Shown here: one piece after another, positions 3,529-12,956 of the stretch | How the letters are laid out: each line of letters opens with the position of its first letter | Numbering within the stretch: position 1 is the stretch's first letter | From: Bacilli bacterium | GTDB taxonomy: Bacteria; Bacillota_I; Bacilli_A; RF39; UBA660 | Assembly: GCA_051872415.1 (NCBI GenBank) | Contig: JBJEDW010000042.1 | Location: forward strand, 56,850-120,849 | Length of the DNA stretch: 64,000 nt | Direction: 5' to 3' | The notes under the pieces: model-generated | Seen by the model: only the letters and a program-made list of their open reading frames with translations | Database searches by the model: none | Told to the model about the DNA's origin: nothing | Program-made: the position numbers and the translations under genes

Positions 3529-4506
3529 TTAAAGCAAATTATCTTGATGACTTTTTTCAAAGTATTCGTAAGCTTTTGTAGTTGCTATTCTTCCTCTTGA
3601 AGTTCTTTTAAGCATTCCTATTTGAATTAGGTAAGGTTCATACATATCTTCAATTGTTGATGTTTCTTCTCCGACTGCTGTTGCTAGTGAATCTATTCCT
3701 ACAGGGCCACCTGAGAATTTTTCAATAATTGCTAGTAGTAATTCTTTATCAGTTTCATCTAGTCCTATTCTATCTATTTTTAATCTATCTAAAGCTTTTT
3801 TTGTTACTTCAAGGTCAATAGTTCCTTTTCCTTCAACTAGGGCAAAGTCTCTTACTCTTCTAAAGAGTTTGTTAGCTATTCTAGGGGTACCTCTGCTTCT
3901 ACTTGCTAGTTCTTTGGCTGCTTCTTCTTCGATTTCTGCTTCTAAAACTTTACTTGTTCTTTTTATAATTTTTGTTAATTCTTCTTCGGTATAATACTGA
4001 AGTTTATTTACTATTCCAAATCTATCTCTTAGTGGTGAAGTTAAATCTCCAGCTTTTGTGGTTGCTCCGACTAAAGTAAATGGAGGCAAATCTATTTTTA
4101 TATTTCTAGTTGAACCTTCACTTCCAATTATTATATCTAGAGTAAAATCTTCCATGGCAGGATAAAGGATTTCTTCGATAAATCTTGGCATACGATGAAT
4201 TTCATCAATAAATAGAACATCTCCAGGCTCTAGCGATGAAAGGACTGCTGCTAAATCACCTGGTTTTTCTATTGATGGACCACTTGCAGTTTTTATATTT
4301 ACTTCAAGTTCATTTGCTATAATGTAGGCCATTGTTGTTTTACCAAGTCCTGGCGGGCCATATAAAAGAACATGATCTAGGCTTTCTCCTCTTATTTTAG
4401 CAGCCTCTATGAAAACTTTCATGTTGTTTTTTACTTCTTTTTGACCAATATATTCTTCAATTAGGGCTGGTCTTATTGCTATTTCTAATTTTTCTTCTTT
4501 TTCCAT
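3529..4506 (-). CDS. ruvB: Holliday junction branch migration ATPase RuvB
   Basis: [12 protein letters not shown] Walker A and full-length RuvB similarity. Confidence 0.95.
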
Positions 4507-9036: not shown

Positions 9037-9627
9037 TTATTTATTTCTTTGAAAAACACTTAAAAATTTTGAAAACTCAAATAATATTTCATTCGCGTTG
9101 TTGATTGCAATTGTTTTTCCAAAAGCTTTTCCTCCAATTGTAAGCGCTGAAATAATACTTGTTGTAATTATTGTTACAATTACTGTGTTTATTCCAATAA
9201 GTGTTGCTAATTTTATGCTTATTGCAAGACCACAACTACCACTTACAACGCCACAGATATCCCCGATTACATCGTTTAAAAATGATGAAACTTTATCTTT
9301 TTGATTTATTAGTTTTATAGCTTGTTTTGCGCCATTTACTTTTTTAGTAGCCATCGAGTGAAATATTTTATCATCTGCTGTTGCAACAGATAGTCCTATT
9401 GCATCGAATATTACTCCAATAAATATGAACATTAATACCAAAAATATTGATACTGCTATAAAAGTGTTTGGAATGATTAATTCACTTATTAAAGATAAGC
9501 AAAATGATATTATAAAAGATATAATTGTTATTGTAAGTAACCATTTTGTATCTGCTTCTTTATTTTTCTTTTTATCTTGTTTTTTTGGCTCTTTGGTATA
9601 TTTTTCTTTGAACTGTTTTATTTTCAT
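9037..9627 (-). CDS. Multi-pass membrane protein, 196 aa; possibly OLE-associated protein OapA
   Basis: About 21 kDa with 4 predicted TM helices. Lies directly downstream, on the same strand, of a ~620-bp structured non-coding region. Confidence 0.5.
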   Translation of the reverse strand: MKIKQFKEKYTKEPKKQDKKKNKEADTKWLLTITIISFIISFCLSLISELIIPNTFIAVSIFLVLMFIFIGVIFDAIGLSVATADDKIFHSMATKKVNGAKQAIKLINQKDKVSSFLNDVIGDICGVVSGSCGLAISIKLATLIGINTVIVTIITTSIISALTIGGKAFGKTIAINNANEILFEFSKFLSVFQRNK

Positions 9628-9649: not shown

Positions 9650-10270
9650 TACGATTTTATCATAGTTTTTTCTAAGAAAAAAGACCAATATGGTCTTCCT
9701 ATAAAATGGCTAATCTATAGTTAACTTTACGTCTTAGGTCAAGTTGGATTTCCCTATTTCTTACTTTGCCGTTACCAGCAGAGCAGTTCCCTTTTAAAAG
9801 AAACAGTAGTATGTTACCATAGCTACGACTTGATTACCACTTAGTACGCACTGCAATCCTATAAATTATCACTCTAGGGGTTTTCCCCTCTGACAAGTTT
9901 GGTTACTAATACTCTTTTGCAATTACAGTTTCATATAGCAATAATTATATTTTATTGGCCAGTAAAATATAATTTGATCTATAATCCCCTGTAACCACTC
10001 AAGTCACGCTTTTATAATTATTATTTAATTATAGATTTTGCTCCTTAAATTAAGGTCTTAGTGAAAGAATGGGTCGGAATCATATGCCATTATGAGCGCC
10101 CATAAATTCTAACCTTTTAGTAATCACCCCAAACTGGGCGTATGAAGCAAATACTAAAAGTTTCGCAAATTAGCTTTTTAGTGGATTTTTAGCCCCACCT
10201 TCGTAACTTTTGTCAACTAGAATAATGTACCATTTTTCTAGTGGTTTAAATTATATCACAAATGGATAAA
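9650..10270 (-). ncRNA. Large structured non-coding RNA candidate (OLE-like?)
   Basis: About 620 bp with no ORF on either strand. Locally elevated GC, e.g. gccgttaccagcagagcagttccc and gggtcggaatcatatgccattatgagcgcccat. Positioned exactly upstream of a small membrane-protein gene. Confidence 0.35.
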
Positions 10271-10274
10271 AAAA

Positions 10275-10724
10275 TCAAGATTTTCTGTAAATAATTAATT
10301 GTCCTGGTAATAAGTAAATGCTGTTGTTACTATATATTACATCTGCTGAAGGAGCTTTAAAAAACTCTGATACAGTTTCTATAGTATCTCCTGTTTTAGT
10401 AATATATAATTTTACATCTTGTTTTGGTATTAAAATTGTTTGTCCTTCGTATATGTATTCATCTTTATCTAAGCCATTTACTCCTAAAAGTATATCTAAT
10501 GAAATATTATTATTTTTTGCTATTTCATAAAGATTATCCCCTTTTTTTACTACATAATAATTAAATATGTTATATAACCCTGTAGGAATCGTTAAACTTT
10601 CCCCCTCTCTTAATGTATAAGGAGCTTTTAAATTATTAGCTTTTACTATTTCAATTACAGGAATATTATATTTTCTACCTATACTTTCAACAGTATCTCC
10701 TTTTTCCACAATATATATGTCCAT
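10275..10724 (-). CDS. LysM peptidoglycan-binding protein (3 LysM repeats)
   Basis: Three repeats of the type YIVEKGDTVESIGRKYNIPVIEIVKANNL. Confidence 0.8.
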   Translation of the reverse strand: MDIYIVEKGDTVESIGRKYNIPVIEIVKANNLKAPYTLREGESLTIPTGLYNIFNYYVVKKGDNLYEIAKNNNISLDILLGVNGLDKDEYIYEGQTILIPKQDVKLYITKTGDTIETVSEFFKAPSADVIYSNNSIYLLPGQLIIYRKS

Positions 10725-10753
10725 GTTATTTTGTACCTCCTTTTTTTAATTAT

Positions 10754-10840
10754 ATGAAAAAAAGAGTATATAATTACTCCATATAGGTGACTAATATTTT
10801 TTCGAATTAAATAAAAGTTCACTATAAGTTACTAGTTTTT
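10754..10840. repeat. 87-bp direct repeat, copy 1 (decayed copy of the 3' end and terminator of gene 12890..14119)
   Basis: About 85% identical to 12870-12956. Contains hairpin GGAGTA-N6-TACTC(C/T) followed by a T run on the minus strand. Confidence 0.8.
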
Positions 10841-10844
10841 TTAT

Positions 10845-11437
10845 AAATTTTCTAATACGCCATTTTCCAAGTCATCAATGTTATACATTGTTTCTAGCTC
10901 GTTAAATGTTTCTTCCAAATTCTTTCTAGCACTATTCCAACCAGTACCATCAGTAAACCAGATAAATGTTACTCCATCAACTTTTTTAGATTCTTAGGCT
11001 AACATTTTATAACTTCTTGCAGTTTCATTTAGTTTAGAACCTTGTGTAGCATAAAAATTTGTTTCAATAACATAGACTTGATTTTTAGTTTTGATAACAA
11101 AATCAAATCTTTTAGTGGATACATTATTCCAGACATAGCACTTAAATCTAAATTCCATTTTTCTTCAATATCTTTTAAATACATTTCTTTAAAATAAGTT
11201 TTGCCTTTAACAAACCCTGCCTTAATTATGTAGGATTCAACTAAGTTTTCCATTAAATCTCCACCACGACTTTTTCTTGCATGAGAATCCAATCCTACTT
11301 CAATGCCCAAAACATAGTCATATAAATTATTTATAATATGATTTTGTAATAAATCAAATAATCCACTTTCATTCATAAATTTAATGTAATCTTTCATTGA
11401 ATATACCATTTCATCAAACTTAAATAAATATTCTTTT
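10845..11437 (-). pseudogene. dpnB: DpnII/MboI-type restriction endonuclease (R.DpnII-like) remnant: N-terminal ~120 codons deleted and at least two frameshifts
   Basis: ESGLFDLLQNHIINNLYDYVLGIEVGLDSHARKSRGGDLMENLV matches R.DpnII. Homology continues in other frames (NVSTKRFDFVIKTKNQVYVIETNFYATQGSKLNETARSYK, then VTFIWFTDGTGWNSARKNLEETF...). Confidence 0.75.
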
Positions 11438-11800
11438 CCAAGTTATATTATTTATTATTTTGAATCCTTCTTGTTCTAATGCCATACCTATTGAATAAAT
11501 ATTATGCATTGTTCCACTTATCCAAATGGTACCATTATCTTTTAATGCATGATAACATAGTTTAATCCATTTTCTATTAAATTTATGTTTTTCATCTATA
11601 CTAATAGATTTATCCCAATCACCTTTATTTACTGATACCATTTTTCCACCACTACAAGATATTCCATCACTAGACAAAAAATAAGGAGGGTCTGCGAATA
11701 TCATATCAATACTCTTAGGTTCTAACCTCTTAAGTATTTTAAATGAATCGCCTTGTATAAGTTTAAAATCTTTATCCTCATAATAATACTTCTTACTCAT
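11420..11800 (-). pseudogene. dpnA: DpnA-type (M.DpnII 2) N6-adenine DNA methyltransferase, truncated after ~125 codons
   Basis: IFADPPYF and GDWDK..NGTIWISG..IYSIGMALEQEGFKIINNITW match DpnA, then the reading frame ends. The 3' half is replaced by dpnB-derived sequence, consistent with an internal deletion. Confidence 0.7.
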
Positions 11801-11834
11801 ACATTACCCTCCTATATATACTATATATCATTTA

Positions 11835-12686
11835 TTACTCAAATTCCTTATTATTTTCAAAATTTGTTATAATTACTTCTTCTACTTTACCTCGTCTTTT
11901 TCCATCTGAATTAATATTTCTTTTTGCTTCAATTACATGAATATTAAAATCTTTATATAATTCATTTATTAAAGTTGTGTTGTGATTAGAAAGCATAACA
12001 TAACATCCTTTATCAGATAATTCTTTAAATACTTTAGCAAGTCTTTTTTGCTGTTCTTTTCCAAAACCATCTTCAGTATAACTATTAAATGTTGATGTAT
12101 CTGAATCATAAGGTGGATCAAAATAAATAAAATCTCCTTTTTTGGCAGACTTTACTGCTTCTTCAAAATCAACTGATAATAACTCAATGTCATTATAGTT
12201 TAAATACCCACATATAATACCTAAATTTTGTCCTTCATAGGTATTAACCTTATTTTTTTTACCAAATGGTACATTAAATTCATTTTTACTATTAACTCTA
12301 TATAAACCGTTAAAACATGCTTTGTTTAAATAAATAGTTCTTGCTGCTCTTTTGTAATCTGCAAGTTTACTAAATTTTTTCTTATCTCTATCAAGATTTC
12401 TAATTTCATAATAATATTCTTCTGAATGTTCAGCCTCGTGACGATTTAATTCTCTACACATTAAATCAAATTTTTTACTATCTTTAATACATTCATACAC
12501 ATTCATAAGTTCCTTATTAGAATCATTTATAACTGCCCTTTTAGGTGATAATTCAAAAAGTAATGCGCCACCACCTATAAATGGTTCATAATAAGTGTTA
12601 AATTCATCTGGAACATATTGTTTCAATTTATCTATTATTTGCCTTTTTCCCCCAGCCCATTTTACAAATGGTTTTCCTTTAATCAT
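11835..12686 (-). CDS. dpnM: Dam-family GATC N6-adenine DNA methyltransferase (DpnM-like)
   Basis: MIKGKPFVKWAGGKRQI, FIGGGA and DPPY motifs of the D12-class Dam MTase. Intact 283 aa. Confidence 0.85.
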   Translation of the reverse strand: MIKGKPFVKWAGGKRQIIDKLKQYVPDEFNTYYEPFIGGGALLFELSPKRAVINDSNKELMNVYECIKDSKKFDLMCRELNRHEAEHSEEYYYEIRNLDRDKKKFSKLADYKRAARTIYLNKACFNGLYRVNSKNEFNVPFGKKNKVNTYEGQNLGIICGYLNYNDIELLSVDFEEAVKSAKKGDFIYFDPPYDSDTSTFNSYTEDGFGKEQQKRLAKVFKELSDKGCYVMLSNHNTTLINELYKDFNIHVIEAKRNINSDGKRRGKVEEVIITNFENNKEFE

Positions 12687-12869
12687 TGTCTGATACCTCC
12701 AATACGTTTATTAAAAAGATTTATGGTTATTTATTTTTATTTTAAGTATAAAGATATTTTATACCTGTTGTAAATCTTTAATCTCTTTGATAATTATACC
12801 ATGGCAAAAGATATTTTTCTTCAAATTGACTTAAATTTTGTCATTATTTTTAATATTACTTATTTTTCT

Positions 12870-12956
12870 ATGAAAAAAGGAGTATATAATTACTCCATAT
12901 AGATAGCCAATCTATTTTTTGAATTAAATGAAAGTTCACTATAAGTTATTAGTTTT
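12870..12956. repeat. 87-bp direct repeat, copy 2 (authentic 3' end of 12890..14119 plus its terminator)
   Basis: See copy 1. Hairpin GGAGTAATTATATACTCC + TTTTTT immediately after the stop codon on the minus strand. Confidence 0.8.

Follow-up and report, generated by a model that had tools for sequence, protein, structure and literature searches.

The 64-kb stretch of DNA analyzed here (the window), which belongs to a metagenome-assembled "Bacilli bacterium" from gut-type samples, carries the remnant of a DpnII-type restriction–modification (R-M) cassette rather than a working member of that family. Every feature of the locus lies on the minus strand. In the direction of transcription these are a cysteine-desulfurase-like gene, an RNHCP-domain gene, a gene for a protein of 406 amino acids (aa), the adenine methylase gene dpnM, a 126-codon open reading frame (ORF), fragments resembling the DpnII endonuclease, a LysM-repeat gene, the OLE RNA, and an oapA-like gene. 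The insert proper (12868–10844) is 2.0 kb long, compared with about 2.7 kb in L127, a sister lineage with an intact dpnMAB cassette at exactly the same chromosomal site. Neither the ORF list nor Pfam searches revealed an integrase, a transposase, or any other gene for mobility within the insert, which apart from the dpn genes has nothing but short spurious ORFs. The first-pass annotation, made from the sequence by itself, had described a decayed DpnII cassette between direct repeats with its Dam-like methylase retained; our analysis confirms the observation with small corrections and supports the interpretation.

The cassette genes and their lesions

The first gene of the cassette, dpnM (12686–11835), encodes an intact 283-aa Dam-class N6-adenine methylase. 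The product covers the full PF02086 profile (D12, alpha-group; E 1e-61), scores 284 bits against TIGR00571 dam, where the cut-off is 115, aligns end to end with the structure of Streptococcus pneumoniae DpnM (2DPM; E 3.7e-85), and contains both the FxGxG and the DPPY motif, all of which bears out the earlier description of the gene. It shares 93% of its amino acids with DpnM of L127.

The two genes that follow are broken. The truncated second methylase gene, dpnA' (11800–11420), is the 126-codon ORF and consists of DpnA codons 1–122, four out-of-frame dpnB codons, and a stop; the first-pass annotation had recognized the truncated DpnA start and assigned it 125 codons. Its PF01555 match is confined to positions 1–82 of 221. 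DPPY is kept, whereas the C-terminal S-adenosylmethionine (AdoMet)-binding motif FNGSGTT, which in the 256–259-aa DpnA proteins of intact cassettes lies near residue 215, falls inside the deleted sequence, as comparison with the full-length DpnA of L043 and L127 shows. Because the AdoMet-binding motif is gone, DpnA of the window is dead. The endonuclease gene remnant, dpnB' (11433–10841), comprises codons 91–284 and ends at the original stop codon (10843–10841); it matches positions 101–228 of PF04556 (DpnII), split over two ORFs.

The lesions were mapped against eight intact cassettes and then against the same-site cassette of L127, with which the window is colinear apart from exactly three differences. 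The largest is a 657-bp deletion with its junction at 11434/11433, seen as exactly 657 alignment columns present only in L127, which took dpnA from codon 123 to its stop together with dpnB codons 1–90 and left microhomology of at most 4 nt at the junction. The deleted length, 657, is divisible by three; consequently, the dpnA reading frame continues into dpnB in the wrong frame and meets a stop after four codons. The single deletion that had been proposed to fuse dpnA and dpnB is therefore real. The second lesion is a 1-nt deletion at 11129/11128 (GGAAAT in L127, GGAAT here), and the third is a nonsense change, CAA to TAA, at 10996–10994. Of the later frameshifts postulated earlier, one is thus this 1-nt deletion and the other is a stop codon; likewise, the endonuclease remnant does lack its N terminus, but it occupies two frames plus one in-frame stop rather than three frames. 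With the endonuclease deprived of its first 90 codons and interrupted twice more, restriction has been lost at this locus, as had been claimed, and the full-length methylase remains.

It is very improbable that these lesions are sequencing or assembly errors, or the product of a strain chimera, and that the DpnII system is really intact. The window does derive from a metagenome-assembled genome (MAG), and the 1-nt deletion sits in a short AAA run, the only one of the three lesions to touch such a run. Yet two Logan assemblies from different runs, L002 (SRR30616767) and L003 (SRR30616778), are 100% identical to the window over 10200–12000 and hence base for base across all three lesions, which means that the lesions are not artifacts of one assembly. 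Moreover, a 657-bp deletion and a C-to-T nonsense change are not errors of the homopolymer type, so that the homopolymer objection raised beforehand was not borne out. The 657-bp deletion and the nonsense codon also led us to dismiss phase-variable switching of the endonuclease. One further candidate for decay was withdrawn: four clustered amino acid changes in an otherwise invariant DpnII motif (DSNGRKNRGGH to DSHARKSRGGD) are present in the intact L127 enzyme as well.

Searches with tblastn found no second DpnM, DpnA, or DpnB homolog in the window, which thus holds an intact dpnM, a destroyed dpnB, and no functional cognate endonuclease nearby. DpnM is probably active, given its intact frame, the GGAGG ribosome-binding site that precedes it, and the conserved cassette leader described below, and the prediction is that it goes on methylating GATC on its own, without restriction. 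Both GATC recognition and N6-adenine methylation by this system would follow from the families to which its genes belong. The composition of the window is consistent, indirectly, with a history of GATC-specific restriction: no 4-nt palindrome is more depleted in it than GATC, which has 74 sites and an observed/expected ratio of 0.43 under a maximal-order Markov model; CGCG (0.56) comes next, and then CATG and GGCC (both 0.61). A single GATC, at 12116, lies inside the cassette.

The duplicated target and the alleles of the site

The cassette is bounded by two direct copies of the 3' end of the upstream flanking gene. This gene (14110–12890) encodes the 406-aa protein, a conserved hypothetical membrane-anchored protein in which no Pfam family was found. 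The upstream copy of the repeat (12960–12869, 92 nt) is the functional one and includes the last 23 codons of the gene, its TAA stop (12892–12890), a hairpin (12896–12879), a T-tract, and CATA. The downstream copy (10843–10753, 91 nt) is a decaying, frameshifted pseudo-3' end of the same gene with a weakened hairpin, and it now supplies the sequence directly upstream of the LysM gene (10724–10275), which encodes a 149-aa LysM-repeat protein (Pfam LysM). The copies agree at 81 of 92 positions (88%) and are separated by a single 1-nt indel. These are essentially the repeats reported earlier as 87 bp and about 85% identical, now extended, and their identification as the end and terminator of the neighboring gene holds. 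In a terminator scan the hairpin was the only terminator-like match within 4 kb; its predicted folding energy is −7.9 kcal/mol in the upstream copy and −5.7 kcal/mol in the downstream copy.

Genomes with an empty site carry the segment once. L007, L009, and no fewer than 12 genomes of more distant relatives have one copy after the 406-aa gene, followed directly by the LysM gene, whose start codon lies about 50 nt beyond the stop of the 406-aa gene; such single-copy empty sites occur in L007, L009, L010, L012–L019, L021, and L027. The single copy of L009 is identical to the upstream copy of the window at 85 of 92 positions and to the downstream copy at 79 of 92. This is the pattern left by an insertion that duplicates the end of its target gene, as the first-pass annotation had proposed. 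The repeats do include a generic-looking terminator hairpin, and one might imagine that they belong to a dispersed repeat or terminator family that was already present and that the cassette fell between two members by chance. We give this idea next to no credence and dismiss it because the empty sites are single-copy, with that copy contiguous with the LysM gene; the repeat contains 23 codons of one specific gene; and no further copy occurs in the window, where the best unrelated ungapped match to the upstream copy reaches 58 of 92 positions.

The ends of the cassette are sharply defined. Direct reading, BLAST, and junction alignments delimit a 5' leader (12868–12687). Part of it, the segment 12868–12777, is conserved and also stands at the left end of DpnII cassettes from at least three unrelated contexts. 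The upstream junction reads CATA/GAAAAATAAG, the latter being the cassette start, and the same junction, CATA/GAAAAA, is found in L127. The cassette ends in TTATAAAAAAA, and the downstream junction falls within TAAAAAAA, the first 8 nt of the downstream copy, which are common to the cassette end and the target. The leader holds an extended −10-like element, TGGTATAAT, at 12801–12793. A canonical −35/−10 promoter could not be placed, as TTGAAG lies 20 nt from TATAAT, and we claim only the extended −10-like element.

A metagenome scan with DpnM yielded more than 460 loci, many of them with intact cassettes in which dpnM encodes 283 aa, dpnA 256 aa, and dpnB 287–288 aa and dpnA and dpnB overlap by 17 nt. 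The window follows the same M-A-B order and is colinear with the cassettes of L043, L050, L071, and L127, all of which have the 17-nt overlap. Related strains had been expected to hold, between the same flanks, either an intact dpnMAB or an alternative cassette, and both were found, together with empty sites, in a sister group whose flanks are about 86–88% identical to those of the window and whose members are ~98% identical to each other. In addition to the intact allele of L127 and the empty one of L009, the site carries, in L004–L006, L125, and L126, an allele with a 65-aa ORF (orf65), a family-4-like uracil-DNA glycosylase (UDG) gene, and dpnM, without dpnA and dpnB and with a shortened downstream repeat. 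In L119–L122 the UDG gene of this allele is split, and in L120 both the UDG gene and dpnM are. Among 80 metagenome loci chosen by DpnM similarity, tblastn with the flanking gene and blastn with the 92-nt repeat found no further occupied copy of the site; the cassettes there lie in other contexts.

Some features of these and related cassettes are recorded here in their own right. In the alternative allele (L004 7261–7918; also L005, L006, L125, and L126), orf65 and the 161-aa UDG homolog replace the leader upstream of dpnM, and in L119–L122 the UDG gene lies in pieces of 45 and 83 aa. The orf65 protein has no Pfam and no PADLOC match, and the UDG-like protein matches Pfam UDG only and no PADLOC family. 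In intact DpnII cassettes on human-gut contigs, the gap between the conserved ~90-nt leader and dpnM is filled differently from case to case (L043 2713–5980, L071 5216–5986, L050 3176–4984, and L039 635–1510): the defense modules are IetA/IetS, PDC-M14B, and PDC-S32 with DUF6414, and L039 has an unannotated 291-aa ORF there; this gap looks like a swap slot for defense genes. L039 also has an extra ORF of 183 aa between dpnM and dpnA (2413–2964) and another of 121 aa between dpnA and dpnB (3796–4161), and the first ~50 codons of its dpnB are apparently missing. The intergenic hotspot itself holds other insertions in more distant relatives. In L029 (7122–7881) an insert of ~500 bp lies between long direct copies of a small acidic ORF (MPVRDENMKVRDID...), which gives this position a second instance of long target duplication. 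In L020 (5980–6590) there is a 610-bp insert with a small ORF.

Exchange between lineages and the history of the insertion

Divergence between the window and L127 differs along the locus. Synonymous divergence (dS) is 0.75–0.80 in the flanking genes, 0.43 in dpnM, 0.16 in the 5' part of dpnA, and 0.06 in the dpnB remnant, which differs from the intact L127 dpnB by eight substitutions in 594 nt. Measured in a sliding window, identity to L127 is 95–100% at the cassette ends, 80–86% in the middle of dpnM, and 73% in the downstream repeat. This mosaic of dS and identity indicates that cassette sequence has been exchanged between lineages and has not simply codiverged with the host; the cassette is a recombining mosaic, not a simple vertical relic. 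Set against the divergence of the flanks, the near-identity of the dpnB remnant to its intact counterpart further indicates that the three inactivating lesions are recent. At the same time, L127 shares both junctions of the window, and the downstream repeat copies of the two are each 91 nt long with common derived states (TTTTATT and ATATTAG), which favors a single ancestral insertion. The insertion thus probably had a single origin.

Collectively, these data support the following history, to which as a whole we assign a probability of roughly 0.85. A 2.7-kb DpnII-type dpnM/dpnA/dpnB cassette without a mobility gene would have landed just after the terminator of a conserved gene, duplicating 92 nt of its target and so preserving both the 3' end and terminator of the 406-aa gene and the upstream sequence of the LysM gene. 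Homologous exchange of cassette sequence between lineages would have followed the insertion. Recently, a 657-bp illegitimate deletion destroyed the endonuclease and took with it the half of the accessory methylase DpnA that holds the catalytic function; with the further addition of a 1-nt frameshift and of a nonsense codon, DpnM alone was left. It is lethal to lose the methylase as long as the endonuclease is active (PMC4176335); the restriction gene must therefore go first, and the order of loss seen here is the expected one.

Several observations weigh against this account. The two repeat copies of the window share two derived bases that are unseen in relatives and are only 12% diverged from each other, compared with 31% for the copies of L127; the duplication in the window thus looks younger than one ancient insertion predicts, unless gene conversion has acted on the copies. 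Identity to L127 also drops from 100% to 73% exactly at the junction of cassette and downstream repeat, and a separate re-insertion would fit this as well. In addition, the activity of DpnM and its GATC specificity are predicted from homology, and the low ratio of nonsynonymous to synonymous divergence (dN/dS) of dpnM, given below, is not assignable to a solitary phase and mostly predates the loss of the restriction gene, because that loss is recent.

The re-insertion just mentioned would make the cassette of the window a separate, recent arrival. Recombination between the 92-nt repeats would have excised a circle with one repeat copy, and, after uptake, a Campbell-style single crossover would have re-integrated it into an empty site of a related genome. 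Such an event would regenerate the same two junctions and so explain why these are identical in spite of flanks that are about 12% apart; it would explain the young look of the duplication in the window too, and it would suit the contrast between cassette ends that are 95–100% identical to L127 and flanks that are about 86% identical, the abrupt fall in identity at the downstream junction, and the fact that the two copies in the window differ by 12%, much as the two lineages do. Empty and occupied alleles, moreover, coexist in one species-level group (L009 versus L127 and L004, with flanks ~98% identical), and a life cycle of this kind has been hypothesized for R-M complexes, without experimental support (PMC2853133). 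On the other hand, the 91-nt length and the derived states shared by the downstream copies of the window and L127 point to common descent, the middle of the cassette is only 80–92% identical to L127, so that the unit was not transferred whole in recent times, ordinary homologous exchange explains the mosaic equally well, and no circular junction was observed. We therefore consider re-insertion quite unlikely. If it were true, the cassette would be autonomous, moving via its own long target duplication, and the locus would provide evidence from a natural population that release and re-invasion, two steps of the life cycle proposed for R-M complexes, take place. We favor the single insertion followed by exchange and recent decay.

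The solitary methylase, its neighborhood, and known systems

In the window dpnM is now solitary, and the word "retained" should not be taken to mean selected, since the restriction gene was lost very recently and dpnM is itself broken in L120. One could nevertheless suppose that DpnM has been domesticated as a host epigenetic regulator in the manner of Dam, rather than being the last gene of the cassette awaiting decay. Its intact frame and a dN/dS of 0.06–0.10 speak for such a role; in the sister species, alleles with the methylase alone are frequent (L004, L125, and L126), and lone DpnM orthologs stand by housekeeping genes in four other gut contigs (L052, L079, L083, and L113). However, with only eight of 594 nt separating the dpnB remnant from an intact gene, there has been little time for dpnM to decay, and the frameshifted dpnM of L120 and the wholly empty slot of L009 imply that the methylase is dispensable in close relatives. 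Domestication is thus possible but, in our judgment, rather unlikely. An argument for long purifying selection on a solitary methylase, built on dpnM of the sister lineage L004, was withdrawn on the grounds that the cassette is a recombining mosaic and the loss recent.

The lone orthologs in the other gut contigs (L052 6001–6852, L079 128–979, L083 6001–6852, and L113 6001–6849) share 87–92% of their amino acids with DpnM. Their presence in several contigs suggests that loss of the partner genes is recurrent.

The genes around the site form a conserved block. We found 159 homologs of the 406-aa protein, and the synteny of the RNHCP-domain gene (14431–14120 in the window), the 406-aa gene, the LysM gene, and OLE is conserved; the database labels of the relatives are Bacilli, Tenericutes, or Mycoplasma MAGs. 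Exact-protein look-ups with a 409-aa, GTG-start version of the flanking gene and with DpnM returned no match, whereas the 406-aa, ATG-start version gave matches. Downstream of the LysM gene, the OLE RNA is full length (10249–9690; Rfam RF01071, 317 bits, model positions 1–616) and is followed by the gene for an oapA-like membrane protein (9037–9627, minus strand). The OLE region is 98–100% identical to that of L127, compared with about 85% for neighboring genes, and the order LysM, OLE, oapA is kept across the low-GC gut Bacilli MAGs of this group. Immediately upstream of the cysteine-desulfurase gene of L123 (1–2910), which belongs to the sister group, there are a large serine recombinase, TnpV, and a fragment of a relaxase, so that in some strains a mobile element borders the conserved block.

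The closest known counterpart of the cassette is the DpnII system (dpnMAB) of S. pneumoniae, which has the same three gene families in the same order: a Dam-class DpnM, a DpnA-type methylase, and a DpnII-family endonuclease. In that species alternative DpnI, DpnII, and DpnIII cassettes are described at one locus (Lacks et al. 1986, cited in PMC3812788; PMC3573125). Like the pneumococcal "intercellular cassette," the site described here holds differing cassettes or none between conserved flanks in related strains, and the exchange between lineages resembles the cassette mechanism of the pneumococcus (PMC3812788). In contrast to pneumococcal DpnII, the cassette described here has lost its endonuclease and DpnA, resides in an uncultured gut Bacilli lineage, and has a 92-nt target duplication at its borders and not shared flanks only. 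The alternative allele also differs, consisting of orf65, a UDG-like gene, and dpnM and not of a methyl-dependent DpnI system.

The mode of insertion has a precedent in the class termed R-M insertion with long target duplication (Nobusato et al. 2000; Furuta et al. 2010, PMC2853133). That class is defined by homologs of both R and M in an insert of less than 20 kb, the absence of mobility genes, direct repeats of more than 30 bp, and a single copy at the empty site, and its repeats commonly span a stop codon (PMC2853133). Each of these features is present here: the insert contains dpnM and the dpnB remnant (both genes being intact in L127), it is well below 20 kb and free of mobility genes, the repeats of 92 and 91 nt are represented by a single copy at empty sites, and they span the stop codon of the 406-aa gene. 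The locus thus belongs to this class. It differs from the cases described there in that its host, a Firmicutes/Bacilli gut lineage, is not among the taxa named there for long target duplication, and in that it has been caught after inactivation of the restriction gene, with empty, intact, methylase-only, and broken alleles at one site.

With respect to orphan Dam-class methylases that stem from R-M decay, the locus likewise has an intact methylase beside the recognizable remains of its cognate endonuclease. A large survey of solitary methylases concluded that they rarely stem from recent in situ degradation of R-M systems (Oliveira et al. 2014, PMC4176335), and the present locus is a clear instance of this minority route. 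It is not new in kind and changes no concept; it is a well-resolved new example from an uncultured gut lineage. Its value lies in the nearly complete series provided by one site, at which empty, intact, freshly restriction-defective, methylase-only, and methylase-broken states are all represented. These studies thus offer a clean case in which a solitary Dam-class methylase has arisen by in situ decay, a route judged uncommon (PMC4176335), and they add uncultured gut Bacilli to the taxa in which insertion with long target duplication has been described. For annotation, the consequence is that this organism should be scored as GATC-methylating, as a prediction, and not as GATC-restricting.

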